Virus record (IMG/VR): IMGVR_UViG_3300036900_000129
Location: 1 to 57,729 of that record
Direction: 5' to 3' (one strand)
DNA from: a virus
Lineage: Duplodnaviria; Caudoviricetes
Length of the DNA: 57,729 nucleotides
Part shown: positions 2,906 through 55,636 of the stretch, piece by piece
Layout of the letters: each line of letters opens with the position of its first letter
Position numbering within the stretch: the stretch's first letter is position 1
The notes under the pieces: model-generated
The model's input: the letters and a program-made list of their open reading frames with translations, nothing else
Database searches by the model: none
Told to the model about the DNA's origin: nothing
Translations under genes and position numbers: made by a program

Positions 2906-2906
2906 C

Positions 2907-4666: not shown

Positions 4667-4672
4667 CCGCTC

Positions 4673-20430: not shown

Positions 20431-20663
20431 GCCTGCGGGAGCGGTGCGACGTAGCGGAGAAGGTGTGGGGTGACCTGGCTGACCGCCAGGACATGCTGCA
20501 CCTGCTCGCCGCTATAGCCAGGGGACTGCGGATGACAGGCCTGGACGGGTACGAGGCCCCGTCTGAGCAGATAGCGGACCTGTTCACCGACGAGACCGAT
20601 GACCCGGTAGCCAAGGCTGAGGAGCGCAGGTTGCACGTGATGAAAGCGACAGGAGCCCTGTAG
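20256..20663 (+). CDS. Tail assembly chaperone frameshift extension (GT-like)
   Basis: The -1 frame is open to a stop overlapping the tape measure start; no RBS of its own. Confidence 0.65.
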   Translation, partial: PYKAAVTLIRWGHGPGRAHVESYLLVQGRRGRAGGAGGAGTAGPPPEAAEEESRFRGLSLRERCDVAEKVWGDLADRQDMLHLLAAIARGLRMTGLDGYEAPSEQIADLFTDETDDPVAKAEERRLHVMKATGAL

Positions 20664-23600
20664 TGGCCGCGCTCGCTGACACGTTCCTGCGGCTGCGCGT
20701 CGATTCCACGCAGGTGCAGAAAGACGTCAGCGCCGGGGTGAAGAAAGCCGCGGAAAGCTCTGATGCCACCAGCGCCGGGCAGAAAGTCGGGAACCTGTTC
20801 GCCAGCGGCTTCAAGCAGGTCATGTCGGTTGCGCTGGCAGCCGGGCTGACAGTCGGGATCACCGCAGCGTTCGCCACCGCCATCAAGGGGGCCAGCGAGT
20901 TCGGCGCCAGCATGGAGATGGTGCACACCCAGGCGGGGGCATCGCAGGCGTCGGTTGAGTCGTTGTCGAAGTCGATCCTGGCGCTCGGCGGGAAGGTGCA
21001 GCAGACCCCGGTTGAGCTGGCCAACGCCATGTTCCACCTCAAGTCGGTGGGCCTGGACGACGCCGACGCGATGAAGGCGCTGCAAACCGCGAGCAACCTC
21101 GCGGCGGTCGGCGGGGCCAACCTGGAAGACACGACTAACGCGCTGGCCGGGGCGTGGCGGTCCGGTATCAACGGGGCACAGAGCTTCTCCCAGGCAGCCG
21201 GTACCGTCAACGCGATCATCGGTGCCGGCAACATGCGGATGCAGGACTTCGTGTCCGCGATCGGCACCGGCATCCTGCCGGCCGCCAAGTCATTCGGCCT
21301 GTCGCTGTCTCAGGTAGGCGCGGCGCTGGCCCTGATGACGGACGAGGGCATCCCCGCCGTTGACGCCGCTACCCGGCTGCGGATGTCGTTCTCGCTGCTG
21401 GCCGCGCCGTCCGGGGCGGCCGACAAGCAACTGGCGAAGATCGGGCTGTCCGGGCTTGACCTGGCCAACGCGATGCGCAGCCCGTCCGGGCTCATCGGCG
21501 CGATCTCACTGCTCAAGCAGCACCTTGACGCCTCGGGGCTGAGCGCCGCCAAGCAGTCCATCCTCCTGTCGCAGGCATTCGGCGGCGGCCGGTCCAGCTC
21601 CGCGATCCTGACGCTGCTGAACAACCTGACGGTGCTGAAGCAGAAGCAGGACCAGGTAAACAGCTCAACCGGCAAGTACGGGCCTGCGGTGGCCGCGCAG
21701 CAGAAGACAGCCGCCGCCCAGTTCGCCATGCTGCGGTCACTGGCTGAGACAGTCGGGATCGAGCTGGCTAATTACCTGGTGCCGCCGCTGTCGGTGTTCG
21801 CGGGGCTGCTGGCCCGCAACATCGTGCCCGCCTTCCATGAGGTCGGGCAGCTCATGTCCGCGACAGTCGGTTACATCAAGCCGGTTTACGCGCTGCTGCG
21901 CGGCAACGCGACGGCGCTGCTGGCGGTCGCTGCGGCTGCCACGGCGGCGTTCACCGCGTTCCGGCTGTTCTCCCTGGCGCAGGTCGCGTACGCGGCGGTC
22001 TCCGGTGGCATCGTGGCGGCGATCAACGCCGTCAAGTTCGCCATGTTCGCCCTCCAGTACGCCTTCGTCACCAACCCGGTCGGCATCCTGATCCTGGCGC
22101 TCGTGGCACTGGGTGCCGCGCTCGTGGTGCTGTGGGAACGGAGCAGCACTTTCCGCAACATCGTGGAAGGGGCCTGGCGGGCAGTTGAGGCCGCTGCCCT
22201 GTCAGCGTGGAACAACGGCATCAAGCCGGCCGTCAACGGGCTGATCACCGCCTACCACGCGATACTTGCCGCCTGGGGGACCGTCGCGTCGTTCTTCACC
22301 GGGGTTGCCGATGCCGTGATCGGGGCGTTCGACCGGATCAAGAACTTCGTGACCAGCAGCTTCGACAACTGGTGGAAGATCAACGGCGATGCCATCAAGG
22401 AACTGTGGCAAGGGCTGTGGCAAGACGTCGAGGCCATCTTCACCCCGGTATGGGACTTCATCACCATCGTGCTGCGGACCGGGTGGGCGCTCATCGTCGG
22501 CATGTTCCAGACTGACTGGCTCATCATCTCCACCATATGGAACACCGGCTGGGCGGTTATCTCAGCCGTGGCGCGCACCACGTGGAACCTGATCGTCATC
22601 GACGCGCGCACCGCCTGGGGCATGATCACCGCCATCTTCTCCACCGCCTGGGCGGTCATCCAGGCGGCCTGGTCAGCCGGGTGGACCACCCTCAAGGCGA
22701 TCTTCGATGTCTTCTGGTCCGCCGTCGAAACTGTCGTCAAGGTGGCCTGGGACGTGATCGTCGGCCTGTTCGGCATCGCGATCAACCTGCTGACCGGGCA
22801 CTGGCATGACGCCTGGCTGGACCTCCAGAACATGGTCATCCAGGTGTGGAACGCCATCAACGCGTTCCTCCGCACCGCCCTGGGGGCGGCTGAGTCCATC
22901 ATGCAGGCCGGGTGGAACGCCATCGACACCAGCGCACGCGCTGTGTGGAACGGCATCCAGTCGTTCTTCGGTGCCTGGTGGAACGGCGTCCGGGCCACGT
23001 TCTCAACCGCTGTCAGCGGCATCGGGGCGGTCCTGTCGGCAGCGTGGAACGGCATCTCGCGGGTCGCCCAGGATGCCTTCAACGGGCTCAAGTCGGCGCT
23101 GGCCACCGTCTGGGGCGGCATCAAGGCGGTGCTGGAATCACCGATCGTCGCCGTGGTCAACGCGGTTATCAACCCGTTCATCAGCGGGATCGACACGGTG
23201 CTGTCCTGGGTCGGGCTTCCAGGCATTCCGAAGATCCCGGGCCTTGCAGCAGGCGGCATGGTGCACGCGATGATCGGCGGCGGGCGGCTGCCCGGGTACG
23301 GCGGCGGTGACCGCCGGCTGATCATGGCTGAGGACGGCGAGACGGTGGTGTCCAAGAGCACCAGCCGGGCGATGGCACCCTTGTTCAGCATCTTCGGGGT
23401 GCCCGGGTACGCAGGCGGCGGCATCATCGGGGACATCATCGGGGCGATCCCCGGCGCGTCTGCGGTGGTGGACGCAGCGAAGTTCGTCAGCGGTGACGTG
23501 CTCAGCGCCCTGAACTTCATCAGTAACGCTGCAAGCTCGATCGGTGCGGCGGTCGGTTCCGGGCACTGGGCGTCCGTGGTCGGCCAGGTTGCCGAGAAGG

Positions 23601-24334
23601 TGGTCACCGCGCCTGTCTCGAAGATCGAGGGGCTGGTCAAGAGCAAGATCGTCGGGCCGATCACGTCGTTCCTCAAGAGCCTGGTCACGACCGCGCCTGG
23701 CACCACCAGGGCTGGCGTGTCCAACGCGTCGGCGCTGGCTGCGCTCCAGTCCGCAGCTGCCAAGCTGGGGTGGACAGGTGCTGAGTGGGCGGCGCTGAAC
23801 AACGTGGAGATGGCCGAGGCCGGCTATAACCTCACCGCCACCAACCCGCAGTCGGGTGCGTACGGCATGGCCCAGTTCATCCAGGGTGCAGCGGAGTACG
23901 CGCAGTACGGCGGGGACAGCACTACGCCGGCCGGGCAGGCGACCGCGATGGTCAACTACATAGCCCAGCGGTACGGCGACCCTATCGCGGCGTGGGCTCA
24001 TGAGCAGCAATTCCACTGGTACCGGAAGGGCGGGGCGATTGGCCGGCCGTGGCGCAGGTACGCCAACGGCGGCGGCATCCCTGAGCCGGTCATCGGGCTG
24101 GGTGCGCGCAGCGGCGCAGGATACGAGTTCCATCAGGGTGAGGAAGTGGCCAGCACCGCGAGCCTGGCCCGCACCAGCGACCAGTTGGAACGGCTGATCA
24201 ACGCGGTTAACCAGCTGAACGGCACGACCGCAGGGGTGGCACGCGGGGTTGGCCGCAGCGTCGGCGGCGCACTGAACCAGACGGCAGGAGACGCGTCGTT
24301 CGCGTCCCGTTACCCACGAGGGGCTAGCTGGTAA
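20663..24334 (+). CDS. Tape measure protein with C-terminal lytic transglycosylase-like domain
   Basis: 1223 aa, Trp-periodic repeats, EAGYN..ATNPQSGAYGMAQF..YI..RYG motif. Confidence 0.93.
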   Translation: MAALADTFLRLRVDSTQVQKDVSAGVKKAAESSDATSAGQKVGNLFASGFKQVMSVALAAGLTVGITAAFATAIKGASEFGASMEMVHTQAGASQASVESLSKSILALGGKVQQTPVELANAMFHLKSVGLDDADAMKALQTASNLAAVGGANLEDTTNALAGAWRSGINGAQSFSQAAGTVNAIIGAGNMRMQDFVSAIGTGILPAAKSFGLSLSQVGAALALMTDEGIPAVDAATRLRMSFSLLAAPSGAADKQLAKIGLSGLDLANAMRSPSGLIGAISLLKQHLDASGLSAAKQSILLSQAFGGGRSSSAILTLLNNLTVLKQKQDQVNSSTGKYGPAVAAQQKTAAAQFAMLRSLAETVGIELANYLVPPLSVFAGLLARNIVPAFHEVGQLMSATVGYIKPVYALLRGNATALLAVAAAATAAFTAFRLFSLAQVAYAAVSGGIVAAINAVKFAMFALQYAFVTNPVGILILALVALGAALVVLWERSSTFRNIVEGAWRAVEAAALSAWNNGIKPAVNGLITAYHAILAAWGTVASFFTGVADAVIGAFDRIKNFVTSSFDNWWKINGDAIKELWQGLWQDVEAIFTPVWDFITIVLRTGWALIVGMFQTDWLIISTIWNTGWAVISAVARTTWNLIVIDARTAWGMITAIFSTAWAVIQAAWSAGWTTLKAIFDVFWSAVETVVKVAWDVIVGLFGIAINLLTGHWHDAWLDLQNMVIQVWNAINAFLRTALGAAESIMQAGWNAIDTSARAVWNGIQSFFGAWWNGVRATFSTAVSGIGAVLSAAWNGISRVAQDAFNGLKSALATVWGGIKAVLESPIVAVVNAVINPFISGIDTVLSWVGLPGIPKIPGLAAGGMVHAMIGGGRLPGYGGGDRRLIMAEDGETVVSKSTSRAMAPLFSIFGVPGYAGGGIIGDIIGAIPGASAVVDAAKFVSGDVLSALNFISNAASSIGAAVGSGHWASVVGQVAEKVVTAPVSKIEGLVKSKIVGPITSFLKSLVTTAPGTTRAGVSNASALAALQSAAAKLGWTGAEWAALNNVEMAEAGYNLTATNPQSGAYGMAQFIQGAAEYAQYGGDSTTPAGQATAMVNYIAQRYGDPIAAWAHEQQFHWYRKGGAIGRPWRRYANGGGIPEPVIGLGARSGAGYEFHQGEEVASTASLARTSDQLERLINAVNQLNGTTAGVARGVGRSVGGALNQTAGDASFASRYPRGASW

Positions 24335-29365: not shown

Positions 29366-30412
29366 GTGACCCTCTTCATTCCCGACATGGGTTCCTTCCA
29401 GGCTGACATCAAGCTGACGGGTGCGCTGGCCGCGATCGTCAAGGTCACCGAGGGTGACTCCTACGTCAACCCGTTCTACCCGGCGCAGGCCAGCGAGGCA
29501 CGCCGGGTGGGGGCGTTCCAGCCTGCCTACCACTTCCTGCACCAGGGGTCAGCGGCCGCTCAGGCCAGCTGGGCGCACGTGCACGCCGGGGCGGTGCCGA
29601 TGATGATCGACGCTGAGCCGACGACGGGACTGGCCGGGAACATCAACCGCAGGTCGGTAGCCGCCCAGCCGCTCATGCGAACGACGGCCCTGCTGGCGTC
29701 CAGGCCGGGCATCAGTGACATCTGCGGTTTCACCGACGCCTACCGGAAACTCGGCGGGACCGTCTTCTGGGTGTACCTGCCGCACTGGTACTGGGTGGAG
29801 CTCGGCTCCCCGTCCCTCAAGCCGCTGGCTGACCGTGGGCTGCTGCTGTGGTCCAGCGCTTACACCACCTACACCGACGTGGACAGCGGCGCCGGGTGGC
29901 AGCGGTACGACAAGTACCTGGCCCCGCAGATGTGGCAGTACAGCTCGTCTGTCAGCTTCGGCGGTATCCATGACGTGGACTTTTCCGCGTTCCGCGGTAC
30001 GTTCCCCGGCAAGGAGGACCCGTTGTCGGTGGCGGAATGCCTGGCTGAGTTCGCGTCGCTGACGCTTACCGGCGCGCTTCCCCTGCCACCCGCAGCGGTG
30101 CTGCCGCCTGTGCGGGACTTCAAGGTCACAGCGGTGGGTGACAGCACCGTGCGGCTGCGATGGGATTCCCCGGCTGGCCCGTCACCGTTCACGGTCGGCT
30201 GGTACCAGGTCACCGTCCGCAGGCACGGGCAAGACCTGCCGTCCTACCCGCGCAAGGTCGACAAGGGCAGCAACCCGGAGAACCACCAGTTCGGGTCGCT
30301 GCCGCTGCATGAGCTTGAGCCGGGGGAGAAGCTGACAGCCTGGTGCCGTGCCGTTGACACCCCGCAGGAAACCCATGCTTCCCCCTGGAAGACCGCCCAG
30401 TTCCCAAACTAA
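29366..30412 (+). CDS. Endolysin: GH25 muramidase with C-terminal FnIII-like domain
   Basis: D.GSFQ, KVTEG, AYHFL, IDAE, WQYS and DVD motifs; VRLRWD..WYQVTV C-terminus. Confidence 0.85.
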   Translation: MTLFIPDMGSFQADIKLTGALAAIVKVTEGDSYVNPFYPAQASEARRVGAFQPAYHFLHQGSAAAQASWAHVHAGAVPMMIDAEPTTGLAGNINRRSVAAQPLMRTTALLASRPGISDICGFTDAYRKLGGTVFWVYLPHWYWVELGSPSLKPLADRGLLLWSSAYTTYTDVDSGAGWQRYDKYLAPQMWQYSSSVSFGGIHDVDFSAFRGTFPGKEDPLSVAECLAEFASLTLTGALPLPPAAVLPPVRDFKVTAVGDSTVRLRWDSPAGPSPFTVGWYQVTVRRHGQDLPSYPRKVDKGSNPENHQFGSLPLHELEPGEKLTAWCRAVDTPQETHASPWKTAQFPN

Positions 30413-31650: not shown

Positions 31651-32168
31651 GCGGCTTCACCGAGGTAATCGATTGCGGCGGTTAGCCAGGATGCTGACTC
31701 GACAAAGCCGAGCGCCACGTTGCAGCCCTGGCAGACCAGCGCTCTCACCTTGCCGGTGATGTGGTTATGGTCAATCGACTTGGCTTCGCGGGTGCACGTG
31801 GCGATGGCGCACTTGCCGTCCTGCTCGAAGTACATCGCTTCCCACATCGGCTTATCAACGCCGTACCTGCGAATCAGTGCTCGCCACCGTTCAGTGGGCG
31901 CACATACCTTGCATAGCCGGTTAGACCGCCTGCCGCCGCGAGCAGTCATCTCAGTCCAGCACTGCGTGCAGCGGGCCGGTCGGACGGCTGCGCGTCGCCT
32001 GGCTGTTGTCTGTCCAGACTTGCAGCTTCGGCACCATGAGTGGAGCTTGTCGCGTGTCTCGGCGTGGCTGTTGAACTCGGTGACCGGCTTGGGTTTCCTG
32101 CATTTTGTGCAGGTTTTCAGCGGGACTGCGCTTGGTTCTCCTGCCACTTCGCCCCTGTCCACTTCCAT
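31647..32168 (-). CDS. Endonuclease VII-family protein with N-terminal Zn fingers
   Basis: QDGKCAI..C..IDHNHITGKVRALVCQGCNVALG; start uncertain. Confidence 0.88.
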   Translation of the reverse strand: MEVDRGEVAGEPSAVPLKTCTKCRKPKPVTEFNSHAETRDKLHSWCRSCKSGQTTARRRAAVRPARCTQCWTEMTARGGRRSNRLCKVCAPTERWRALIRRYGVDKPMWEAMYFEQDGKCAIATCTREAKSIDHNHITGKVRALVCQGCNVALGFVESASWLTAAIDYLGEAA

Positions 32169-32725
32169 GCCCCTGTCCACTGGCCGGCCGGGAGAAGTGC
32201 ACCGATGTCATCAGGTGCGACGTATCCTGCCCAGCGGTTGTCTTCGAACAAGTGCACGTTACCGGCTTGTTTGCAGGCGTCCGCTAGCTGGGAGCACATC
32301 ATGTGGCCGGTTGCCTTGATGAAGCCGCGCAGCCCGGGGACGGGTACATGCCAGCGGCGGGCGGCGATCGCTGCGTAGTCCAGCCAGGAATACGGCACCC
32401 CGTGCGGTCCCCATGGTCCCGGCTGGGTGTAGCGCGCCGCAGCAGCAGCAACCGCCGCATTAGTCGGCAGCACGCCGGTTGACCACTGGTGCGGCACGTC
32501 CTCGTAATGCCACGGGACCAGCACAGCACCGCTGGCTTCAGCTTCCGCGATGGTGATCTCCCCGTGCAGCGACACGCTCGTGCACACGCACACGTGATTC
32601 CACTGGGAGAACTTCCGGGTGGACAGCCACTGCAACAGCTGCACCGCCGCGCTGGCCTGGTTCAGCGTGTTGACCACGCACAGGTCACCAGGCTCAGGCA
32701 ACACATCAGTCATGGGCACCACCAT
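32117..32725 (-). CDS. Permuted papain-like (NlpC/P60, YiiX/YebB-type) amidase/peptidase
   Basis: PGD..WNHV..EA..PYS..MCSQL, with His preceding Cys. Confidence 0.75.
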   Translation of the reverse strand: MVVPMTDVLPEPGDLCVVNTLNQASAAVQLLQWLSTRKFSQWNHVCVCTSVSLHGEITIAEAEASGAVLVPWHYEDVPHQWSTGVLPTNAAVAAAAARYTQPGPWGPHGVPYSWLDYAAIAARRWHVPVPGLRGFIKATGHMMCSQLADACKQAGNVHLFEDNRWAGYVAPDDIGALLPAGQWTGAWKWTGAKWQENQAQSR

Positions 32726-33935: not shown

Positions 33936-34763
33936 TCACGGCTGGGCTGCCCGCAGCGGAACAAGCTCCCCCGCTACCTCGGTGACAGCTTCGATGGTGA
34001 CCAGGTGACAGCGGCCTTCCAGTGCGCGCAGCAGCGGCGTGTCCAGGCACGCGTACCGGCCTGCTGTCACCTCAATCCACGTGTACCCGTCATGGTCACG
34101 GTAGACGGGCAGGTACAGGGGGCTCGCGGTCAGCAGGTCATCTGGGACTGCTTCACCTGTGATCACGGCACCGTCAAGTTGACGTGTCATCTGCATGTTC
34201 CTCTCTCGGTAGGATCTTCTGCTGCACGTACCTGGTGACCGCTTCATAGGCATCCGGTGGGACGCTGGGGAGCCGTTGCCCGTGGAAGCGTTCCGCACGC
34301 AGCGTCCCGTCGAGGAACCGCATGACGTAAACGATGCCGAACTCGTCCACGTTGATCACCCTGAACAGGATGCCGTCCGGGAGCCGCTGGTATTCAGCAA
34401 CATCTGCGGTCATCACAGCAGTCCTCTCTCAGCATGCCATGCGGCCCACACGATGCGGGCCTGGCTGTCAGCCCATACGGTGCGGGTCTCGATGCTGGCC
34501 TGGCAGGTGCAGGTGAGTTCCAGGTCCCGTTCCCTGGTCGGTTTCAACCGCAACTGGTGTTCCGCCTGGTCGTCTTCCATGGGCGGCCAGTGCGGCAGTG
34601 CCAGCCCGCCCTGAACCGGCCCCGGGCGGCGGGCGTGCGCCTGGAGTATGGCGGGGTCTGGTAGCGGTGAGGTATGCCCCATCCGCCCGGTGGCCAGGCC
34701 AAGCAGGAACGTGACCTGCTTACGCCACAGCGCAGCAGGATCGACGGCTGACCAGGTGTTCAC
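33936..34763 (-). CDS. Three hypothetical genes (33936-34196, 34174-34416, 34413-34763)
   Basis: Overlapping starts/stops with GAGAGG or GAGG RBSs. Confidence 0.65.
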
Positions 34764-35398
34764 CCTGGCACCTCCTCATCCGCTGCCGGGAGGACGTTGC
34801 GCACGTGCTCGATGGTGTAACCGCCCGGTGGCTGGAGGCTCAGGCCGAGCACGTCGATGCGTATCTCCTGGCTGGTAAGCCCTAGGCCCTGCTGCTGCCT
34901 GACCCAGATGCCGGCCAGCATCCGCATCTCCCTGGCTGTCTTGGCCGGCAGGTGATGCAGCGGCCGGTGGAAACGGCCTGCGCTGTCAGCCATCCGCAGG
35001 TACACCGCTACCAGCTGCCCACGGTCGCTGGCGATGACTGACAGGCCGCCGGCGTCGCAGCACCAGTTGCGGTCAAGGACCATCATGCGGGCGGCGCTGC
35101 GCAGGTAGTCAGCGGCGGCGTCCACCGTCGTGATACCTGGTGCGGGCCTGGGCTCACGGCGTGGCAGCGGCAGGTTCTCGCTGATCTCACGGGCCAGTTC
35201 CCGCAGGTCGCTTTCCTCTATCCACAGGCCGGTGACCGGGTTGCCGTTGGCATCGCGGATCACGCAGGCCCACGGGCCTCCGTGCTGCGGGATGGTCAGG
35301 CGCATCATCTGCGGTTCCCGGTTTGCTGCATGCCCGGGTGACTGCCCTTCGGTGATGACCAGGATGGTGTTCCCGTGCTGGTCACTGGTGATTTCCAT
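34760..35398 (-). CDS. YraN/UPF0102-like protein, degenerate, with extra N-terminal domain
   Basis: AAADYL..MVLDRNWCCDAGGLSVIA..IRIDVLGL..IEHVRNV. Confidence 0.7.
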   Translation of the reverse strand: MEITSDQHGNTILVITEGQSPGHAANREPQMMRLTIPQHGGPWACVIRDANGNPVTGLWIEESDLRELAREISENLPLPRREPRPAPGITTVDAAADYLRSAARMMVLDRNWCCDAGGLSVIASDRGQLVAVYLRMADSAGRFHRPLHHLPAKTAREMRMLAGIWVRQQQGLGLTSQEIRIDVLGLSLQPPGGYTIEHVRNVLPAADEEVPG

Positions 35399-35422
35399 CG
35401 GTGTTTCTCCTCTCTCAGCACC

Positions 35423-35448
35423 AGTGTACCGCCCACATGTGAGGCGTT
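35423..35448 (-). promoter_or_regulatory. Promoter with degenerate ACATGT operator
   Basis: Minus strand cctcACATGTgggcggTACACT. Confidence 0.5.
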
Positions 35449-35485
35449 ACCTGGCTACTTTTCCACGACACAAAGGGCTAGCCAC

Positions 35486-35794
35486 TCAGCCCATTACCTC
35501 CAAGGAGTCCACGGTGCGGCCCTTGACGTTGGCCATTACCACGCTGATGCAGTCAGCTCGCCTGCCGTGCGCCTGCATCCACCGGCTCAGTGCCCGCCGC
35601 AGCAGCCGCACACGGGAATCGCTGAGCTTCGTCAGCGCGGATGCCGGGCGGATCATCACGACGATGATCACGCCGTTCTGCTCCGCTACCAGGTCCAGGT
35701 GATGGGCTTCCTGCGGGTCCTGCCAGTCACGGTCAAGGACCGTGATGCCGTGCCCGGCCAGGTGCTCCGCGACCATCTCCGTCAGATCGTTCAT
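35486..35794 (-). CDS. YraN/UPF0102-like protein, degenerate
   Basis: VAEHLAGHGITVLDRDW..LDLVAEQNGVIIVVMIR..LRR....W. Confidence 0.65.
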   Translation of the reverse strand: MNDLTEMVAEHLAGHGITVLDRDWQDPQEAHHLDLVAEQNGVIIVVMIRPASALTKLSDSRVRLLRRALSRWMQAHGRRADCISVVMANVKGRTVDSLEVMG

Positions 35795-38700
35795 GTGATG
35801 TCCTGCACCCTGCTCCTGGCGGCCTCCCGCAGCCGGTTAGCGACCACCTCCCGCACCGTGTCGTCGCCGGCGTCAACACCCAGGTCAGCAAGCATGCGCT
35901 GTAGCGCCGCCGCCAGGGTCTCGGCCCGCTGCTCCAGTTGCTCAGGTGCCGGGTCACCGGCCCGCTCGATCACGTACCGGTCCCCCGGCTCGATCACGTG
36001 CGGGGCCTGCACCATGCCGACCAGCGCACGGGCCAGGCCCCGCTGGTCGGTGGTCTGCACGTACCGGCCGCCGTCCGCCGTGCACAGCGTGAACAAGAAC
36101 TGGTTGTCATCGTCAGGTGGTTCGGTGATGCTGTCGATAAACGCAGCTACCCCCGCCAGGAACGCCGTCTGTGCCTGTTCCGCCATCATGACCTGCTCCT
36201 GCTGCTGCACCCGCATGGTGTGCGTGTCGGCAACCTGGGCGATGCTCGGTGCCATGCGCAGGGCGATGAACTCAGCCAAGGCAGCCGGCTCAGCCTCCTG
36301 CCATGGTGTTCCCTCGGTCTTCGTCCACTTCGCCAGGCAGATCCGTACGCCGCCAGCGATGGCCTCACGCAGGTCTGTGCTCCGCACCATGACGGACGGT
36401 GCTGCCTCTGGCTGCGGCAGCGGGTACCTGTGCGCCCACTGCTCGAACGCCACCTGCGGATTCCACGTGACCGCCCCCTGCGGGTGCGGCGTGTAGAACA
36501 CCAGCGTGTACGGGTCACCCTGCCTGATCAGCAGGTGCACCCCCGCCAGGCGTGTCCCGTGCGGTACCTCCGGTAGGGCACTCAGCGGAATTTCGCCGGG
36601 CTCCCGTTCAGCGAACACGACGCTTGCCTCAGCGGGCCGGCCGGTCTCGAACCGGATCACCTGCCCGTCCGCGAGCACAGCGGTAAACCGCACCTGTAGC
36701 GCCTCAGCCAGGACACCCTGATCATTCATCGCTGCTCTCCTCACCGGCCAGGTGCTCCCTGGCTAGCCGTTCCACCTCAGCCCAGAATGCGTCGGTGGCG
36801 TTCTGCTCCCAGGCGCCGATCATGTCGGGAAGCGGCAGATCATAGCTCCATTCGACATTGAGGTCAGCCAGGAGTTCGTCTTCACTGCTGGCCGGTTCCT
36901 GGTCGGCCAGCTCGTCCTTGGCTGGGTCGCCGTCCTCAATCCACTTCAGGACCGTCCGGTAGGTGCGCTCGGTGGTCTTACCGTCGAACACCCACGACGC
37001 GGCGTCCTTCCCCGCGTCCACGCCGAGCGCGGCGGCCCTGGCGATCAGGTCTTCCTCCCGGGCGGCAGCAGCCAGGGTGAACAGGTCAGCGGTCTTGAGG
37101 CGGAATGCCACGGTGCGTCCTCCTGCGGTAACCCAGGCGCATGCGGACTCACCCAGCCCGTCCCACTCCACGCAGAGCAGGGTCGGTAGCCCCTCAGCCC
37201 GGCCTGGTTCCTCGGTGACGGTGATCAGCCGGTGCCCTTCGGGGGTGTGGTCGTCTGTGGTGCTCATGACGTGATCCCCTGCCGTTCCCGCTCAGCGGCT
37301 TGCGCTGCTTCACCGTGGGTGCCGGCGAGGCGTTCCGCAGCGCACCAGGGGCAGCCAGGTGCGAAACCGGAATGCTCGTCGCAGTGCACCGCGTACCGGA
37401 CGCCGTCGCGCCAGCCGGCCCGGTACTGCGGGAAGCCGGGATCAGACCATGCGGGCTTACCGCCGTTGAGCCTGCGGAAGTAAGCTGCGCACTCACGTTC
37501 GGTGCCGGTGTCTCGGCCTTGGAGCCACTGGCGGGCGAAGGCGTGCATGTTCCGGATGGCTACCTGGTGATACCAGGCGTCCAGGAGCGCTGACCGTTCG
37601 TCGGCGGCAGCAACATGATCGAGCTTCCCGTAACTGGGGTCCAGGTCAAGCAGTGCAGTGAACGCCAGGCTCGGGTCCAGGTCAGTCGGTTGCATCGGGT
37701 TCTCCTAGTCGGCGCAGGCGCGGGACGTCATCGAAGGGCTGAGATGATGGTGCTTCCGGGGTATCCCCTGGTACCGGGGTCAGGATGATCTCGTCCACGG
37801 GCAGGTCAGTGACCTTGGACCCCCAAAAGGTCGCCACGGTTGCCTGCTCGGTGTCCAGCGGCCAGCATGCGCCGTTGACCAGGACGGTGGCGCTGACAAG
37901 CTTCATCAGGCCGCTTGGCTCACGCCGGTAGGTGACGTTGATGCCTTCCAGGTGCAGCAGCCGCACAGCTAGCGGCTGCTCGTTGAACAACGGGGTGATC
38001 GGGTCTTGCACTGGTGTTCCTCTCTCGGTTTGCGCGCGGTTTGCGCGCATTGCTATTCCCTGATGGCCTGGTCTACGGGAACCAGCCCGGCCAGTTGCAC
38101 GATCTCGTCGTTCACACGGCCACCGGTCAGCGCGTAGTACGCCTCCACGAACGAACTGAACGCGGCCGGGTCAAGCGGCTGCGCGTCACGGAACCGCTGC
38201 GGCAGCTCACCCCCGGCCGCTGCTACCAGCCGGTCGTAGGCGTCCTGTAGCTGCGCCTGCCACTGGCTGGCCAGCCTGACCACGACCATGTGCTGCTCTG
38301 GGTCAACGTGCACGGTGCTTTCCTCCTCTTTGCCTGGCCGGCTTCCCGGTCAGCCGTGCGCGTGCACGCCTGCACAGGTTGCCGGCGATCATGGCGATCT
38401 CGGCGTACTCCTCCCAGATCGTCCAGCGGGCCGCCTCTGCCTCCTCAGCACGCCAGGCGGCTTCCTGGTCCAGCACCTCCCGCATCGCGTCCTCACGGCT
38501 CATGCCGCCCGCAACGCGGTCCTCGATAGCCTGCTGCACCAGCACGCGGTCCCGGTAGCTTCGCGTGCTCACGGTGCTAGCGCTTCATCGATGGACTCCT
38601 GCCGATACGGCTGAATCTGGGCGGCGCAGGTCGGGCAGATGCCGTACCTGTGCTCGCGCCCGTCCTCGGGCATCGATGTGACCGCGTAGCCGGCTTCATG

Positions 38701-38966
38701 CCAGCGGCGCATCTCAGCTTGCGCGGCTTCAACGAACCGCCCGTTGGCTGACCCGTTGTCCACGTGCACGACTGTTTTCATCCTGCTGCCTCGGCTTCCT
38801 CAAGAACCGCCTCAACCTTGGCGGCGTCGTAACCCAGCCAGCCTGAGTCATGGTCACGGTGCTCATGCTGGTGCTGGTCTACGTTCTCGCTGTGCGGCCG
38901 GGCGATCGCCATCGGGTCGCAGTGAACACCGACCAGGTGCAGCGCTAGCTCCTCCGCTTCGGTCAT
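35791..38966 (-). CDS. Eight hypothetical genes (35791-36729, 36722-37267, 37264-37695, 37682-38011, 38053-38313, 38303-38572, 38569-38781, 38778-38966)
   Basis: Translationally coupled ORFs with RBSs; no family recognised. Confidence 0.7.
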
Positions 38967-39991
38967 CCTGCTGCCTCCTCCTGCCCGACCACCTTGAAGC
39001 GGTCACGGCGCATCACGTCGTTAACCCGTCCGATCGGCACGACCCGGCCGTTGCGAGCGAGGTACGCCACCACGTCCGCCGCCGCCGGCTCGCAACCCTG
39101 CTCGCTTCGCAGTGTTGCGAGTGCGAGCCTGATGGCCGCGGACTGTGAGCCGTGCCCGCCGCCGTTCGCAACAGGTGCGAGGGGCCGGCTCGCATTCGCG
39201 GTCGCACCCGCGCTCGCAGCGCTCGCAAGCGGGCTCGCGCTCGCACTGGCGGTGAGAGCAGGCCGTTCGCTGCTGCTCGCAACCGCTCTCGCAACGTCAC
39301 TCGCAGCAGGCACCGGCCGCTTGCGAGCACCCGCATTCGCTGTGCTCTTTGCGAGCCGCTTGCGAACAACCGCTCGCAGTTCCTTGATCGCAGTCCACGG
39401 TGCGCCGATACCCGGCACCCATACCAGCAGCCCGAACGGCGGCAGGGGTTCCACCCTGGCCTTGGCGTCATACCCGTGCTGCGCGCGTCCCACGTCGCGC
39501 CTGGCGGCCCCCAGGATGGCATGGGCCATCCAGTACACCATCACGCTCATCACGGGGAAGAACAGCTCCTCAGCCACGTTCCCGGACCCCAGCGCGCCAC
39601 GCCAGTTGATGAACGCTGACAAGCCCACCAGGACAAGCGCCATCAGGCGGAACTGGGCACCGCTCTCACCCTTCTCAATGCGGTCGAGTGCGAACCCGTA
39701 CACGACGATCGCTGCGATGTCGAGTGAGAGCGGGCCGAGAAGCGAGTGCAGCTGCGACCAGCGCAGGTCACCCTTGAAGAATGCGAGCAGCCCTGAGAAC
39801 GACATCGCTGCGACTGCGAACACCACCGTTGCGAGCAGTGCGAGCGTTGCGACTCGCCGTGCGCGGGTGAGAGTGCCTGCGGGCAGTGCGAGCGGTGCGA
39901 CTGGCTCGCTCGCGCTGCTCGCAACATCCGGCTCGCTCGCATTCTCATTCGCACTCGCAGGTACCAGCCGGCGCGAGAACCTGATCTTCAC
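38963..39991 (-). CDS. DUF2637/Spd-like membrane protein with C-terminal HTH-like domain
   Basis: About 4 TM helices (AMSFSGL..PLSLD..SAFINW..P), Ala/Ser linker, helical basic C-terminus; AAAGGGG RBS before GTG. Confidence 0.75.
   Translation of the reverse strand: MKIRFSRRLVPASANENASEPDVASSASEPVAPLALPAGTLTRARRVATLALLATVVFAVAAMSFSGLLAFFKGDLRWSQLHSLLGPLSLDIAAIVVYGFALDRIEKGESGAQFRLMALVLVGLSAFINWRGALGSGNVAEELFFPVMSVMVYWMAHAILGAARRDVGRAQHGYDAKARVEPLPPFGLLVWVPGIGAPWTAIKELRAVVRKRLAKSTANAGARKRPVPAASDVARAVASSSERPALTASASASPLASAASAGATANASRPLAPVANGGGHGSQSAAIRLALATLRSEQGCEPAAADVVAYLARNGRVVPIGRVNDVMRRDRFKVVGQEEAAG
39050..39960. repeat. Dense dispersed TCGCA/TGCGA motif array
   Basis: About 35 copies counted by hand, in two clusters and both orientations. 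Confidence 0.85.
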
Positions 39992-40013
39992 TGGTGCGTT
40001 CCCCTTTCTTTGG

Positions 40014-40688
40014 TTAGTGGTCCCAGTCGCGTTCGCGGCCGCTCTTGTCCGCCTGCGCGTCCCAGGCATCTCGGATGCGCGGGTCTTCCGCAGGCGGGTT
40101 CTGCTCAGGGTCGGTGTTGCTGGCCGGGTCAGCCCAGCCGGGCAGCTTCGGCATGATGCTCCTCAGTGGGTCTCGTTCAGGCGTGCGATGAACTGGCGTG
40201 TGGTGCCGTTGTCCTGGGTGACGGTGACCATGATGACTGAGCCGCTGGCCGGCTCCCCGGACACCGACGTGATGCAGGCTGGCCTGACCGGCTCAGGTGG
40301 CCTGTCAGGGCTGGTGACGAACGCATGGTGCAGGGTGGCGGCAACCCAGCGGCGCACGGGGTCCATGCTCTCCAGTTGCTTCAGGCCCTCCCGGCTTGGC
40401 TTCCGGTTGATGTCAGCCTTCACCGGCTGGCACCTCCTCAGCCTGCGGGGGCTCAGGGTGCAGCGTGATCAGCTCATCACGCATCCGGCTGGTCAGCTCG
40501 TGGTAGCCCTGCTGGTCGCTCTCAGGCATCGCTTCGAGTGCTGTGCGCCATGCGATGCGGGCGGCGTCGGTGGCCTGTTCCAGTTCCAGGATGGTGCGGT
40601 AAGCCTCAGCGGCTTCCTTGCCCCTGGCGGACAGGCGTGAGGCGTGGCGGGCGGGCCGGGTCTTGGCGGTGCCCTTCGGGTCGGTCAT
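40014..40688 (-). CDS. Three hypothetical genes (40014-40154, 40163-40423, 40413-40688)
   Basis: GGAG RBSs; 40014-40154 is a 46-aa ORF not in the track. Confidence 0.6.
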
Positions 40689-42371: not shown

Positions 42372-43136
42372 ATGCCAGCACGCCGGGCCGTGCTAGGGGC
42401 CGCATCCGCAGCAGCGCTCACCCTAGTCCTGCCGCTGACACTCGCCGGCAGCACCGCGCAAGCCGTCACCAACCAGTGCCTCAACACGCCCCGCCCCGTC
42501 AGCGGGCTCGTCGGCTGCGGCACCCTTTACACCCCCTACCTAGGCGGCGGGCCGCACAACCTCGCCCTTACCCTCACCGCCAGCAGCAACAGCTTCCTGG
42601 CACCCGTGCAGGTGGAAGTGTTCAGCGGCAGCAGCGCCCGCCAGGACTGGACGTTCTACCAGCTGTGCACCCGGATGAGCCTGTACCGCAGCGCCGCCAA
42701 GCCGTGCGGTGACGGCGGCAAGATCGACAAGAACCGCTTCGTCATCCAGTACACCCCGTTCGGCCACCAGCCCCCGGGCGGGGTCAACAGCCAGCAGAGC
42801 CTGTGCCTGGACGACGACAGCAGGCATGTGGTGCTGGCAAACTGCCAGTCGCACCGTGCGTACCTCCAGCCGGGATTCCCCAACCCGCCGTACAGTGACG
42901 GCACGCCTCCTGCGGTGCTGTCCGCTAACCCCGCTGAAGCGTGGATCTTCACCCCCGTCCACGGGGGTGTCACCATCCGCAACGCCGCCACCGGCCGGTA
43001 CCTGGACGACAACGCCAACGGCCCCGCCGGCACGAAGGTGATCACCTGGGAACGTAACGGGAGCGCCGACCAGGTGTGGGCGGTCCTCGGGTGCACCAGC
43101 CCGCTGACCGGCATGCCCGGGTACGGCGGCTGCTGA
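42372..43136 (+). CDS. Secreted ricin-B (beta-trefoil) lectin-like protein
   Basis: Signal peptide ending AQA; QDW, EAW and QVW repeats; LCLDD; IRNAATGRYLD. Confidence 0.75.
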   Translation: MPARRAVLGAASAAALTLVLPLTLAGSTAQAVTNQCLNTPRPVSGLVGCGTLYTPYLGGGPHNLALTLTASSNSFLAPVQVEVFSGSSARQDWTFYQLCTRMSLYRSAAKPCGDGGKIDKNRFVIQYTPFGHQPPGGVNSQQSLCLDDDSRHVVLANCQSHRAYLQPGFPNPPYSDGTPPAVLSANPAEAWIFTPVHGGVTIRNAATGRYLDDNANGPAGTKVITWERNGSADQVWAVLGCTSPLTGMPGYGGC

Positions 43137-43141
43137 CCCCC

Positions 43142-43324
43142 GTGAAAACAGCTGTCCGCTGGCTGTGCCTGGCGGTAACCTACATGGCAGCATTCACTGT
43201 CCTGGCGGCGGTCGCGGGACCGTGGGCGTGGACGCTGATGATAGTGGTCACGCTAGCCGGGATGATCGTGCTGGTGCTCTGCCTGCGCCAGCCGGCGAAC
43301 GTGCGCGGTTCACGGGAACGCTAG
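43142..43324 (+). CDS. Small two-TM membrane protein
   Basis: Hydrophobic 60-aa ORF directly after the lectin gene. Confidence 0.55.
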   Translation: MKTAVRWLCLAVTYMAAFTVLAAVAGPWAWTLMIVVTLAGMIVLVLCLRQPANVRGSRER

Positions 43325-48009: not shown

Positions 48010-49797
48010 TCAACCACCATGCTCAGCCATGAAGAACACACCTGAAGCGCACACCTGGTCACCCGTCACCTCAGCCAGGCCGTTGCTGCGCAGCGTCGAC
48101 AGGTAAGACCCGAACGTGCCGCCGCCCTGCTCGATCCCGGCCGCCTCGGCAAGCTCAGCGCGGCTGACGCTCGCCGGGTACACGGCCAGCAGGTGGTCAA
48201 GCATGGCCCGTGCGCCGGCCTTGAGCGCGGACCGCCACTGCTCACGGATCTCTGCGGCAGTCATCGGCTCGCCAGGCTCAACCCCGGCAGCGGCAAGCCC
48301 TGCCGGGGTGATCAGTACCAGGCCGTTTTCCTCGGTGATCAGGCCGTTAGTGCGGAGCGCGGAGAAGTAGCTGCCGAACGTGCCGCCTGACTTCTTGACG
48401 CTGCCAAGGGTTGCAAGTTGACCCCGGGTGACCTTAACCGGGTGCTGGCGGGCCAGCGCGGTGAGCATCCGCATTGCCCCGGCCTTGAGGTGCGGCACGT
48501 TACCAGATGCAGGTTCCTGCCGCGCCGCTCCCGGCGCAGCACGCGGACGCACAACTGGCGGGCGGGTCATGGTTGCAGCAGCAGGCCGGCTGACCTGGGC
48601 GAGCGCCAGTTCGATACCCCCGGTGATGTCCCGAAGGCCCGTGACGGCTTGCTCAAGCGCTGCCATGTCACCAGGGGACAGGACGGGTACCTCAATGCGC
48701 TCAGGCGGCCGGGCACGTTCGGCATTCAGCTGATCCGTCAAGGCGGCGACCTGCGCCCGCAGCTCAGCGGCCTCTGCCGGCTGGCGGGTGGCCAGTTGCC
48801 GCTCAAGCTCACCGATACGCCGCCGCAACACTACCGGGTCGTTGACTTCCGCTGCCTTGATAAGCGCGTCCATCCGCTTCAGGAGAGCACCCAGGTTGAT
48901 GTCCGCCAGTGTTGCGGGACGCTGCGCCCGCCTGGTCATGGTCGGGGTGGCACCGGAATCGAAGGTGCTGCGCTGCCTGAACTTGACGCGCTGAACCGCC
49001 GGCTGCCCGTGCCGCACCAGCCATTGCGGGGAGATCACCCAGCCTTCACCGTCAGCAAGAGACGGCAGCGACTCGACTATCTCCCGGCTCTGCGCATGGT
49101 AGTCAACCCATGCCTTGATGGCGGCCCTGTCCTGCGGGCTGGTAGTACGCATGGCGATCAGCGTTTCCGCTTGCGTCAGCACGTCCTTGTTGACGACTGC
49201 GCTGCGCTGGCTGAGCAGCGTCACCCCGAGACCGAACGAGCCGCCTTGCTTGACCAGCCGGGACCAGACGCCGACACACCGCGTCTGGTCCTGCATCACC
49301 CGCTGGGGCAGGTACTCGTCGGCTTCCTCAAGGAACAGGTGCCGTGGCTGCGGGTCCTTACGGTGCAGCCTGAACAGGTGCTCACCGAAATCCGCGAGGA
49401 ACCGCATCTGCGCGGCCTTGGACGGGAAGTCAGACACGTCCAAGATGCACGTCAGGTTCTCCGCGACGATGATCTCCGCGATGAGGTGACCGGACTCGGG
49501 TGTAAGCGGCAGGTCACCATGCAGGCCGCCGAATACCGGGACAGCCAGCCCGGGGCCCTGCCCGTCACCGGATGCCCGCAGCCCCCACCAGTCGCCTTTC
49601 GGGTCGATGGCCGCCCACGGCAGCCGTGCGTAGTACATCTCCTCAGCGAGTACCGCCCCGGTGTTCGACTTCCCGGCCCGCCTGACAGCAAGGATCGCCG
49701 CTGACTGCGTAACCATGTCAGCTGGGAGAGTCAGGGTCAGCCCCATGTTCAGGCTGCTGCGCGCCTGCACCGTTACAGCCTTGGCTTTAGCGGGCAT
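48010..49797 (-). CDS. HerA/FtsK-superfamily ATPase (DUF87/DUF853-like) with coiled coil and two winged helices
   Basis: AVRRAGKS, IDPKG, LFLEEAD and LSQR motifs; duplicated LKAGA..GGTFGSY.S.LR.NGL. Confidence 0.8.
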   Translation of the reverse strand: MPAKAKAVTVQARSSLNMGLTLTLPADMVTQSAAILAVRRAGKSNTGAVLAEEMYYARLPWAAIDPKGDWWGLRASGDGQGPGLAVPVFGGLHGDLPLTPESGHLIAEIIVAENLTCILDVSDFPSKAAQMRFLADFGEHLFRLHRKDPQPRHLFLEEADEYLPQRVMQDQTRCVGVWSRLVKQGGSFGLGVTLLSQRSAVVNKDVLTQAETLIAMRTTSPQDRAAIKAWVDYHAQSREIVESLPSLADGEGWVISPQWLVRHGQPAVQRVKFRQRSTFDSGATPTMTRRAQRPATLADINLGALLKRMDALIKAAEVNDPVVLRRRIGELERQLATRQPAEAAELRAQVAALTDQLNAERARPPERIEVPVLSPGDMAALEQAVTGLRDITGGIELALAQVSRPAAATMTRPPVVRPRAAPGAARQEPASGNVPHLKAGAMRMLTALARQHPVKVTRGQLATLGSVKKSGGTFGSYFSALRTNGLITEENGLVLITPAGLAAAGVEPGEPMTAAEIREQWRSALKAGARAMLDHLLAVYPASVSRAELAEAAGIEQGGGTFGSYLSTLRSNGLAEVTGDQVCASGVFFMAEHGG

Positions 49798-50834: not shown

Positions 50835-51878
50835 GTCTGTACCTCCCCGGCTGGGAGCGGCCAAGCGCCCAGGCAGCCAGCGCCGCCGCCACCGGAGTTA
50901 GGACCACCCGGGGCACCGTCGATCCCCGTAGAACCGTTCGGGCACAGGCCGCCGTGCCCGCCTTCCTCGGTTGCCCCGCAGTACGCGCAGGGCGGGGCGT
51001 CCGGGTCACGGCCATGCCCGCCGCCACCTAGGGCGATGCCGTAATGGTTCAGCATCTCTTTCTGCCGGGCCACGCTGATCCCGTGCTCGGTGGCCTGCGC
51101 GCACCATGCGCGGATGATCCGCTGCAACTGCACCGCGCGCTCGTCGCCGCCCTCGGCCTGCCAGGCGCGGAGGAACGCGGCGATCTTCTGGCTGTCCTCG
51201 GTCTCGGTCAATTGGGTCTCCTCACTGATCTTGTCGGCCTCGCCAGCCATCGCATACAGCGCCCACCTGGTCGCCGCAATCGGGTACAGGTCCGGCGTAA
51301 GGCCGTCAGTGGAACGGAACTTGCTGACAGGGATCGCGTCAGCGCCTGCGCGGAGTACCCGCGCCCACTGGGCCGGCGTCATAGCGGCTCGTCCAGTTCG
51401 CGGACTACCTCGCCGTAACCCTGGTTAGTGATCGCGAACTTGATGAAGCCGGGGTCACCGAAGACCCGGACGACGTAGCAGCCGTCCACCTTCGTGTAGT
51501 CGGGTGCCCCGACGACGGCGGCGCGGCCTAGCTGCTGAACGGTCTGGTCCAGCATGGCGGGGTCCTCGGTGCGGACGAGGATGTCGGTTGCACGCGGCAC
51601 GGTCATGGGGCATCCTCGAATGTCACGGTGTACGCGGTGAGCGGCCGGTTCGGGCGGTCGTCGTCCCGCAGCGGGACGGTCACCGACTGGGCCCGCCACG
51701 CCTCGAACGCGGTCATCATCGACGCGAACACCAGCGCTTCACACCGGTCCCGTGTCCAGATGGCATCCCCGCGTCCCTCGCGGGCTTCCAGGTCGTACGC
51801 CTTGAGGTACTTGCCTTCCAGGCCGGGCAGCGGACCGCCTGCGCAGCGGATGACAACTGGTTTAGTCATGCTGCTCAC
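50831..51878 (-). CDS. Three hypothetical genes (50831-51382, 51379-51606, 51603-51878)
   Basis: Coupled ORFs. Confidence 0.65.
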
Positions 51879-52812
51879 CGGTATCTGCGGCCGGCGGAAG
51901 AACAGCGGTCGGCGTGAGCACGCCTTCCTCGTCGTCTTCGGCTGAGCCGATCATCGCGGGGTTGCTGCCGGGCAGCGGGTCAGACTGGGCGGCAGCCAGC
52001 GCCGCCGCCATCTGGTACTGGTACTCCGTGGAATGCGGCACCTGCCCGTACAGGCGGCGGATGCTGGTCTTCCGCCACATCATGTGGGTGTCCTTGCCCT
52101 CGGCGGGCCAGGCCGGTCCCCAGAACCCGTCACCGCCCTGGCGGGCTGCCGCTGACCTTGACCGGTATGACAGCACCTCCTCCACGCCCAGCACCACCGG
52201 CTGCGAGTGCCCGCCGGCGGTCATCGCCGCGCACGCCCACACGCCGGTCAGGAACCCGCGCTTGGACTGCGAACCGAGACCGCGCTGGTTGTACTCGTTG
52301 GCGGGGATCTCATGGAACGGCACGTCCAGGCCCGGCTGCCAGTCGAACTTGTCATGCTGCCGCACCACGTGACAGTGGACAGCGGTGACCGCGCCCGTGC
52401 GGTACACCATTTCCAGCATCCCCTTGTAACCCACGATCGGGCTGATGCTGTAAGTGCCCTTGTCCGGGTTCGGCTGGTTCCCCACCTTGTCCCGGTTGTC
52501 CCGGTAAGGGACCATGTAGAACTGGTCGGTACCCGGCACCAGGCCCAGGCGGGCGCACTCAGCCAGGGCGGTGAAGAACGTGTCGGGGTGCTGCCACAGC
52601 GCCATGTGCAGCTGGGGGCTGCCACGGCGGATCGCGGCGATGCCGAGCTCCACGAACTGCACCGCGTCCACGTGCTGCGGTGCTACCTTGTCGAACCAGC
52701 CGCGATGCTGCCGCACCTTCTCCACGGCCAGGTCAACAGCCTTGGCCATTGCGCCTTCACGGGGGGTCTGCCGCTGGGTGGCGACGGCACCGCGGATTGT
52801 GTTGTCAGGCAT
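51862..52812 (-). CDS. recT: RecT-family single-strand annealing protein
   Basis: CARLGL.P..YMVPY..VGYKGM..YRTG..D.F..MWRKT.IRR. Confidence 0.9.
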   Translation of the reverse strand: MPDNTIRGAVATQRQTPREGAMAKAVDLAVEKVRQHRGWFDKVAPQHVDAVQFVELGIAAIRRGSPQLHMALWQHPDTFFTALAECARLGLVPGTDQFYMVPYRDNRDKVGNQPNPDKGTYSISPIVGYKGMLEMVYRTGAVTAVHCHVVRQHDKFDWQPGLDVPFHEIPANEYNQRGLGSQSKRGFLTGVWACAAMTAGGHSQPVVLGVEEVLSYRSRSAAARQGGDGFWGPAWPAEGKDTHMMWRKTSIRRLYGQVPHSTEYQYQMAAALAAAQSDPLPGSNPAMIGSAEDDEEGVLTPTAVLPPAADTGEQHD

Positions 52813-55446: not shown

Positions 55447-55636
55447 TGGTGGCCCCTCTCTGGTTGCCAGTGGTTTCCATGTAACCACTACTGTACGGGA
55501 TACCCATGACATTCGGGGTGACTGGGGTACTGGCGTGTTGCCGCTGGCAGCATCCCCGTACTGGGGTTATCATGGGCAGCGGAAGTTCGGTGGTCCGCGA
55601 ACCAGGCTCGCGTCATCGGTGCTCCCCTCTCAAGCG

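Follow-up and report, generated by a model that had tools for sequence, protein, structure and literature searches.

Two adjacent YraN-like genes with degenerate nuclease sites in a viral record from soil

Introduction

YraN (UPF0102) was an orphan protein family until a recent preprint described it as the nuclease partner of ComM in natural transformation (10.1101/2024.02.06.579203). In this preprint, YraN is reported to be an endonuclease of single-stranded DNA (ssDNA), to interact with ComM and to act on the D-loops of transformation. It promotes D-loop extension, probably via a nick in the displaced strand, and its interaction with ComM derives from two-hybrid and co-evolution data (10.1101/2024.02.06.579203). 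Here we analyze two adjacent YraN-like genes, termed A and B, in the virus record IMGVR_UViG_3300036900_000129. The window that was analyzed is this complete IMG/VR record, a linear sequence of 57,729 bp. We conclude that A and B are very probably YraN-derived proteins without the canonical active site.

In PMC1189080, 'ID-EVK' is given as the typical YraN motif, and inactive nuclease-like domains are described elsewhere in the PD-(D/E)xK superfamily. Structural subunits of tRNA-splicing endonucleases, such as SEN15 (3if0, 2gw6, 2zyz), have kept the nuclease fold and lost the catalytic residues, and function in binding and assembly. ERCC1, which pairs with XPF, and EME1, which pairs with MUS81, are further non-catalytic nuclease paralogues. 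The archaeal Holliday-junction resolvases of the Hjc type (2wcw, 1ob8, 1gef, 1hh1, 2eo0) represent the minimal PD-(D/E)xK core of alpha-beta-beta-beta-alpha-beta topology. In our literature search we found no description of catalytically degenerate or phage-borne YraN homologues.

Results and Discussion

A and B belong to the YraN family

Gene A (34760..35398, minus strand) encodes a protein of 212 amino acids (aa) with an N-terminal add-on domain and a YraN-like core, and gene B (35486..35794, minus strand) a minimal YraN-like core of 102 aa. Both start with ATG and have a degenerate site. A spacer of 87 nt (35399..35485, minus strand) separates B from A, with a Shine-Dalgarno sequence (GGAGA) 8-9 nt before the ATG of A. 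The G+C fraction at third codon positions is 0.82 for A and 0.85 for B, compared to 0.49 and 0.41 at second positions, a coding signature in both genes. An initial annotation, made from the sequence alone, had proposed two adjacent YraN-like open reading frames (ORFs), and this was borne out: both lie on the minus strand, both are modelled with the fold of 3FOV (see below), and both score above the gathering cut-off of PF02021/UPF0102 (23.6 bits), A with 26.4 bits (residues 93-184) and B with 29.2 bits (residues 7-85). A six-frame search of the window gave the identical result.

The best NCBIfam model for both proteins was NF009154 ('YraN family'). The scores of A (56.1) and B (29.4) are far below its equivalog cut-off of 109, compared to 151.3 for a host copy (locus L011) and 114.3 for the copy of locus L090, discussed below. 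A profile of A, B and their relatives P0001, P0003 and P0004 reached 856 proteins at E ≤ 1e-3 among 1.84 billion representatives. Orthologues of A share 84% (P0003), 69% (P0004) and ~40% (P0005) identity with it and keep the full length and the two-domain architecture; B has one close relative, P0001, with 91% identity. The Ig-repeat protein P0127 was dismissed as a profile match, as it rests on a short 'ITDANGN'-like motif. A defence-system or toxin role for A and B was dropped as well, being without any supporting match; no PADLOC-DB family was matched at E ≤ 0.01 by any of nine proteins (A, B and seven neighbouring ORFs).

AlphaFold2 modelled B from a 100-row alignment with a predicted local distance difference test (pLDDT) score of 90.5 and the topology alpha-beta-beta-beta-alpha-beta-beta. 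The top match of this model in the PDB by Foldseek was 3FOV, the UPF0102 protein RPA0323 (E 2.8e-6, template modelling (TM) score 0.73), followed by R2 restriction-like endonuclease domains, XisH, splicing endonuclease and Hjc; RecB domains (5mbv and 8b1t) were matched as well. The model of A had a mean pLDDT of 83.9, with values above 90 in the core. For the core (residues ~90-204) Foldseek again placed 3FOV first (E 4.2e-4, TMt 0.78), and an exhaustive VIA search returned 3FOV with a Z score of 12.9 and a root-mean-square deviation of 2.1 over 99 residues, the next chains having Z ≤ 7.8. The comparison with the YraN fold by structure prediction and Foldseek, which the initial annotation had recommended, thus returned the family's own structure for both proteins. 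Searches of PDB sequences with single sequences or a 5-sequence profile gave chance-level matches only; a 100-sequence profile headed by B reached the 3FOV sequence at 1.8e-21 and the Hjc ST1444 at E 0.0054. In BFVD nothing was closer than generic PD-(D/E)xK proteins (TM ≤ 0.61).

These comparisons also define the relationship to the other nuclease-fold proteins. Hjc resolvases share the minimal core with A (VIA Z 5.8-7.6, moderate) and with B (Foldseek). In contrast, the E-D-E-K tetrad positions of Hjc are substituted in both A and B, and no direct sequence relationship to Hjc was detected for A or B alone. The VIA matches of A include SEN15 (Z 7.6) and the Nanoarchaeum equitans structural subunit of the splicing endonuclease (Z 4.9). 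Unlike these subunits, which have an active paralogue in the same genome, both phage copies are degenerate, and any active partner would have to be the host YraN.

The N-terminal domain of A (residues 1-~85; 35144..35398, minus strand) accounts for the added domain of ~90 aa that had been noticed in the sequence. It was modelled as five strands and a helix (residues 1-75) followed by a Pro-rich linker, with pLDDT values of 60-83. The best VIA matches were the N-domain of KhtT (Z 7.8) and ssDNA binders of the PC4/PUR type (Z 4.7-4.8). As these values are in the range that the tool calls common, no fold is assigned to residues 1-75, and the Atlas gave no named family. The domain is also present in P0003, P0004, P0005 and P0088.

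The nuclease site is degenerate in a conserved scaffold

YraN homologues were classified by four strand sites, G-E-x-D in strand 2 and E-x-K/R in strand 3, with the Glu of helix 1 kept out of the classification. By these sites, a first alignment of 152 sequences comprised 107 canonical and 45 degenerate members. The alignment enlarged by 81 YraN ORFs from fetched loci had 230 rows, 182 canonical and 48 degenerate. A and B are members of a larger group of actinobacterial YraN homologues, 45-48 in number, in which the site is degenerate.

Strands 2-3 of A (residues 117-135; 34994..35050, minus strand) read G-G-L-S ... Y-L-R in place of G-E-x-D ... E-x-K, and those of B (residues 31-49; 35648..35704, minus strand) read H-H-L-D ... 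M-I-R. At the five site positions of the 230-row alignment, A has V92/G118/S120/Y133/R135 and B has T5/H32/D34/M47/R49. Both thus lack the complete canonical catalytic signature of YraN (helix-1 Glu, G-E-x-D, E-x-K/R), with the strand-2 Asp remaining in B. The strings on which the initial annotation relied were found in A (GGLSVIA, 117-123; VAVYLR, 130-135; VLDRNW, 107; IRIDV, 179) and in B (HHLDLVA, 31-37; IVVMIR, 44-49; VLDRDW, 19). Its claim that the catalytic motif is lost in both proteins holds fully for A but has to be qualified for B, which keeps Asp34. The change of the final Lys to Arg is not a loss in itself, because Arg occupies this position in 21 of the 182 canonical rows (Lys in 161). 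On the other hand, a fifth site residue had been missed: the helix-1 Glu, present in 176 of the 182 canonical rows, is replaced in A (V92) and B (T5), and is mostly Val, Leu, Ile or Thr in the 48 degenerate rows. The C-terminal R-x-D strand, also attributed to both proteins, is clear in A. In B, R79-A80-D81 lies just before modelled strand 4 and aligns ambiguously, pairing either with the R-x-D strand of the family or with a preceding actinobacterial R-[FY]-D.

Outside the site, the degenerate rows keep the Leu of helix 1 (45/48), the Trp of strand 1 (44/48), the Ala of strand 2 (44/48), the Trp of helix 2 (48/48), and the Arg (44/48) and Asp (46/48) of strand 4. Non-catalytic conserved positions are kept about equally in degenerate and canonical rows. 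A and B accordingly share with YraN/UPF0102 not only family and fold but also core size, the helix-1 YL, the strand-1 LDRxW and the helix-2 Trp, whereas the strand-4 RxD and the actinobacterial C-terminal block GG[FY]TIEH, common to host YraNs and A, are both clear in A only. They differ from the family in that the Glu/Glu-x-Asp/Glu-x-Lys set is gone, except for the Asp of B, and in being phage-encoded, away from comM-dprA and present as two diverged copies, one with an N-terminal domain.

Loss of the canonical residues does not by itself equal loss of activity, and A and/or B may still be nucleases with a rearranged active site, as are some PD-(D/E)xK enzymes. In Vsr, as cited in PMC1189080, FxH takes the place of (D/E)xK, and the same source documents active-site migration in the superfamily. 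Candidate substitutes exist in both proteins: B keeps Asp34 with His31 and His32 adjoining, and its E6 and E10 are one turn-position from the lost helix-1 Glu, while helix 1 of A carries D93 and D97. However, these residues are not conserved among relatives. In the B subgroup the two residues before the Asp vary (GR, GH, GT, GV, GM, DP, GA, HE, HT, HA, GQ, GL, GW), as does the strand-3 position (I, E, V, R, L, Q, A, D, M), which argues against a conserved alternative site. Moreover, strands 2-3 of A are devoid of acidic residues, and the helix-1 Glu has become hydrophobic across the group, the pattern expected of an abandoned metal site. We therefore regard a rearranged nuclease site as unlikely. 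The homology of A and B to YraN and the loss of the canonical site are solid.

A and B are related to yraN of actinobacterial hosts

When prokaryotes were scanned with a single genome for each species, 80 yraN loci were obtained, the named ones mostly from metagenome-assembled genomes (MAGs) of Streptosporangiaceae/Trebonia, many on contigs of 0.1-3.5 Mb. Chromosomal yraN genes of such MAGs, arranged in yraN-comM-dprA operons, are the canonical homologues closest to A and B. All four site residues are kept in 78 of the 80 loci; the exceptions are L060 (Asp to Asn) and L058 (see below). At L019, yraN is followed by ComM (PF01078, 3.9e-70) and DprA (PF02481, 2.8e-67). An ORF of at least 480 aa comes directly after yraN in 66 of the 80 loci, with Pfam confirmation of ComM and DprA at L019 only and several loci ending at contig edges. 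These data agree with the statement in the initial annotation that YraN is a cellular protein encoded beside ComM.

In BLASTP comparisons A was 39-42% identical to YraNs of Streptosporangiaceae MAGs (E down to 2e-20). The best matches of B in the host set had 28-35% identity (E down to 5e-11), the highest being the degenerate copy of L058. In a quick maximum-likelihood tree, 40 of 41 degenerate rows had long branches and adjoined the host sequences of Streptosporangiales type, a placement that is weakly supported (SH-aLRT 88); note that long-branch attraction may inflate the apparent unity of these rows. A and B fell into separate degenerate subgroups when the tree was left free. However, uniting their groups in one clade was not rejected by the approximately unbiased test (p 0.708), the constrained tree having the higher likelihood, so that either one old duplication or two separate captures may have given rise to A and B. 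A recent tandem duplication was excluded, as A and B share 31% identity over 39 residues (BLASTP, E 0.003). A and B are best read as divergent copies of actinobacterial (Streptosporangiales-type) yraN, that is, as host-derived pseudo-nucleases.

Degenerate copies occur on viral, plasmid-like and chromosomal-looking contigs

A survey of homologues for consistent catalytic loss, as proposed in the initial annotation, found the site degenerate in every close relative, P0003-P0007 for A and P0001 for B. The same applies to the copy of L003, part of a 38-kb viral contig that is syntenic with the window (tail genes of 67-78% identity and a shared lysin). Apart from this single degenerate copy, P0013, which has an N-terminal extension of its own at the position of A, L003 gave no PF02021 match. 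The three YraN-like genes seen on the two viral contigs are all degenerate.

Degenerate copies are also found in other contexts. The metagenome contig of L090 (5.6 kb; 37-5588) encodes a ParB-like protein (phrog_6218), a YraN-like protein, ComM, DprA, SSB and a DUF4192 protein, a gene string that looks like a plasmid or an ssDNA-processing module of the integrative and conjugative element type. Its YraN-like gene, directly upstream of ComM, has kept the helix-1 Glu and the strand-2 Glu/Asp and has Gln/Thr in strand 3. The ComM is 44% identical to host ComMs, which are themselves ~70-80% alike. A YraN-like protein without E-x-K can thus stay genetically tied to ComM. L096 (2295-6275) contains a phrog_1362 protein (E 1.5e-79), a ParB-like protein of 616 aa and a degenerate YraN-like gene (DGAIVIVA ... 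CEVTTR), after which the contig stops, so that a ComM may follow downstream. L090 and L096 represent plasmid-like or other mobile contexts. On the chromosomal-looking contig of L087 (6949-11070), dprA lies ~1.1 kb downstream of a degenerate yraN-like gene, and the interval contains no ORF of the size of ComM. In one Streptosporangiaceae MAG, the canonical yraN of L007, with a 560-aa ORF after it, is accompanied on another contig by a degenerate second copy (L058, protein P0016) in which E-x-K has become V-x-M, in an unrelated neighbourhood (PAP2, enolase). L093 consists of a run of small unannotated ORFs. Upstream of the yraN-like gene of L087 are a helix-turn-helix/DUF5753 regulator and a TniQ-like gene, and erosion or rearrangement of a competence-type locus may explain this arrangement.

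The presence of degenerate copies on phage, plasmid-like and chromosomal-looking contigs indicates that site loss is recurrent and not exclusive to phages. The view of catalytic loss as a phage trait, as implied initially, thus applies to all three genes on the two viral contigs but does not set these apart from plasmid-like and chromosomal-looking copies.

Free evolution of the catalytic positions would also be expected if A and B were functionless, slowly decaying leftovers of captured host genes, and some chromosomal copies, such as that of L087, are in seemingly eroding loci. Several observations contradict this explanation, which we consider very unlikely. Neither reading frame is interrupted, the coding signature is strong, and there is translational coupling. 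Orthologues down to ~40% identity have maintained length and domains, the scaffold positions are conserved as in active relatives, the AlphaFold2 models are confident, and A gained and kept an extra domain. In addition, among the soil and rhizosphere runs in which contigs matched the stretch, one independent rhizosphere run has a variant contig that covers both genes (34771-35962) with at least 51 substitutions and no insertions or deletions among the listed differences.

YraN-like genes are rare in phage collections, in line with the earlier remark that yraN is not a usual phage gene. Searches of PHROG gave no match for A or B at E ≤ 1 and none for 35 degenerate relatives; two weak matches (P0111 and the canonical P0018) were to families of unknown function. 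A tblastn search with A and B against 50,697 INPHARED phage records and a megablast search of the same records with 34000-37000 were likewise without match. P0009 and P0013 matched only five UNVERIFIED fecal scaffolds ('Bacteriophage sp.') in INPHARED (L105-L109: MT837353, MT836180, MT835643, MT837986, MT838912). The four site residues are intact in 4 of these 5, L106 having Asp for the strand-2 Glu. As an ORF of ~510 aa, the size of ComM, adjoins yraN in 3 of the 5, these records are probably pieces of bacterial DNA that were filed as phage. Finally, viral contigs of IMG/VR were examined by a pattern scan that is insensitive, making absence weak evidence. None of 11 pattern matches was confirmed for one profile and none of 44 for a canonical host-type alignment, and a further alignment identified one locus, L003.

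A and B may act by binding instead of cleavage

Conservation of the scaffold together with loss of the metal site is most simply explained by a protein that binds the ligands of YraN, and the arrangement of L090, where a copy with Gln/Thr in strand 3 precedes its own ComM, makes a non-catalytic role of YraN plausible. On balance we slightly favour the view that A and B act by binding instead of cleaving, with the target left open. A and B would no longer cut DNA but would occupy the usual ligands of YraN, such as displaced ssDNA or D-loop DNA, and/or ComM, or host YraN itself in a mixed oligomer. Binding would shield or redirect recombination intermediates during infection, which the RecT and RecE/YqaJ proteins of the phage may generate. 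The N-terminal domain of A might add a second contact of unspecified specificity. In a complex prediction, a host-type ComM (L022) and the core of A (residues 86-212) obtained 0.20 and 0.01 compared to a mark of 0.32; this prediction was without controls, its ComM was a MAG stand-in and not that of the true host, and it weighs neither in favour of binding nor against it.

Several points weigh against a binding role. Loss of cutting and gain of binding are inferred from sequence and models. Asp34 of B with its two adjoining His residues and the Arg at the Lys position leave room, as far as the sequence tells, for residual or altered catalysis. The conservation of many scaffold positions may serve the structure alone and would then be no proof of a retained ligand surface. 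An unrelated new role would be a further alternative. The degenerate copies on chromosomal-looking contigs (L087, L058) could reflect relaxed selection without new function. Lastly, the record is 79% complete according to CheckV, and the missing part could hold a phage ComM or DprA.

A more specific version of the binding role names the target: A and/or B might be decoys or dominant-negative mimics of the host ComM-YraN(-DprA) machinery that block or hijack it, as the initial annotation had suggested. Their genes derive from a host partner of ComM, the interaction of YraN with ComM is reported in the preprint (10.1101/2024.02.06.579203), and a site-degenerate YraN-like gene directly precedes ComM in L090. 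Furthermore, the linkage of yraN with comM and dprA is absent for A and B in the 79% complete record: nothing scored above the cut-off of PF01078 (ComM) in the 57.7 kb, a single 13.7-bit match being on the strand opposite a likely gene, and PF02481 (DprA) gave no match. However, the benefit to a phage of blocking a transformation-type helicase is not obvious, and the role of ComM and YraN in actinobacteria is itself only putative. B is moreover far from host YraN (29.4 bits on NF009154 compared to 151), so that a conserved interface is not assured. We consider the decoy version rather unlikely.

In its most far-reaching form, which appears rather unlikely, this idea would make A and B the first viral proteins to antagonise or hijack ComM-YraN-DprA, a bacterial machinery of single-strand recombination. 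As dead YraN mimics they would dock on ComM or poison YraN oligomers, sparing the displaced strand of the D-loop from nicking and thus protecting or redirecting the recombination/replication intermediates of RecT/RecE. Lambda Gam and P22 Abc2, which bind RecBCD, are a parallel only in their possible logic, whereby a phage that itself has RecT/RecE modulates a host machine that acts on DNA ends or D-loops. Gam and Abc2 are not homologous to their target, whereas A and B would be mimics drawn from the target pathway, and inhibition by A and B is conjecture.

That a group of YraN homologues has lost the active site but not the scaffold suggests a non-catalytic activity for the YraN fold, in binding a partner or a DNA structure. 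The group provides a handle on the role of the conserved yraN-comM-dprA operon in Actinomycetota and on possible interference of mobile elements with it. Most Actinomycetota are not known to be transformable. Were A and B antagonists, mobile elements would routinely manipulate ComM-YraN-DprA, and the pathway would have a role in Actinomycetota beyond natural transformation. If they are simply DNA binders, they present a tidy case of pseudo-enzyme evolution after capture of a host gene.

Genomic context of A and B

The window has a G+C content of 65-70%. The left arm, on the plus strand, encodes the large terminase (9032-10822), a Mu-type portal (11445-13583), the tape-measure protein (20663-24334) and a GH25 lysin (29366-30412). 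The right arm, on the minus strand, consists of small genes of mostly unrecognised function together with RecT (51862-52812) and a RecE/YqaJ exonuclease (54346-55512). Polymerase, helicase, ComM and DprA were not recognised among the genes of this incomplete record. The record is best explained as a temperate-looking siphophage from soil, with A and B in its early or middle gene arm.

The gene upstream of B (35791..36744, minus strand) encodes an acidic protein of 317 aa and overlaps B by ATGA, indicating translational coupling. It had no match in Pfam, PHROG or PADLOC and no usable match in the Atlas, and none of six pattern matches was confirmed in the insensitive IMG/VR scan, in which absence is weak evidence. 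A contig of 233 nt from a rhizosphere metatranscriptome library matches 36035-36267 within this gene with 5 differences; it may be DNA carry-over, and as it covers only these 233 nt it says nothing on transcription of A or B. Downstream of A, a gene for a protein of 116 aa without family (34413..34763, minus strand) begins with a GTG that overlaps the stop of A. A homologue also follows the YraN-like gene in L003 (6522-6686; tblastn, 40% over 55 aa). A DUF2637 protein is common to both related phage contigs (window 38963-40069, minus strand; L003:3795-4910) and is encoded a few genes upstream of the YraN-like genes.

Several other ORFs deserve mention. Between the lysin and the small-gene arm, a protein of 202 aa (32117-32725, minus strand) matches phrog_1128, an enoyl-CoA hydratase/crotonase-like 'moron'. 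A 595-aa protein (48010-49797, minus strand) has weak PHROG matches to phrog_7035, a family of unknown function, and phrog_2666, large-terminase ATPases. The packaging terminase being at 9032-10822, this may be a second P-loop or nuclease-type protein of the early arm. Within the minus-strand arm, two long ORFs overlap on opposite strands (42372-43136, plus strand; 42540-43193, minus strand). The plus-strand ORF encodes a ricin-B lectin domain and is the one that matches L003 better (50% over 215 aa, E 8e-63), and for these reasons is probably the real gene, against the orientation of its neighbours.

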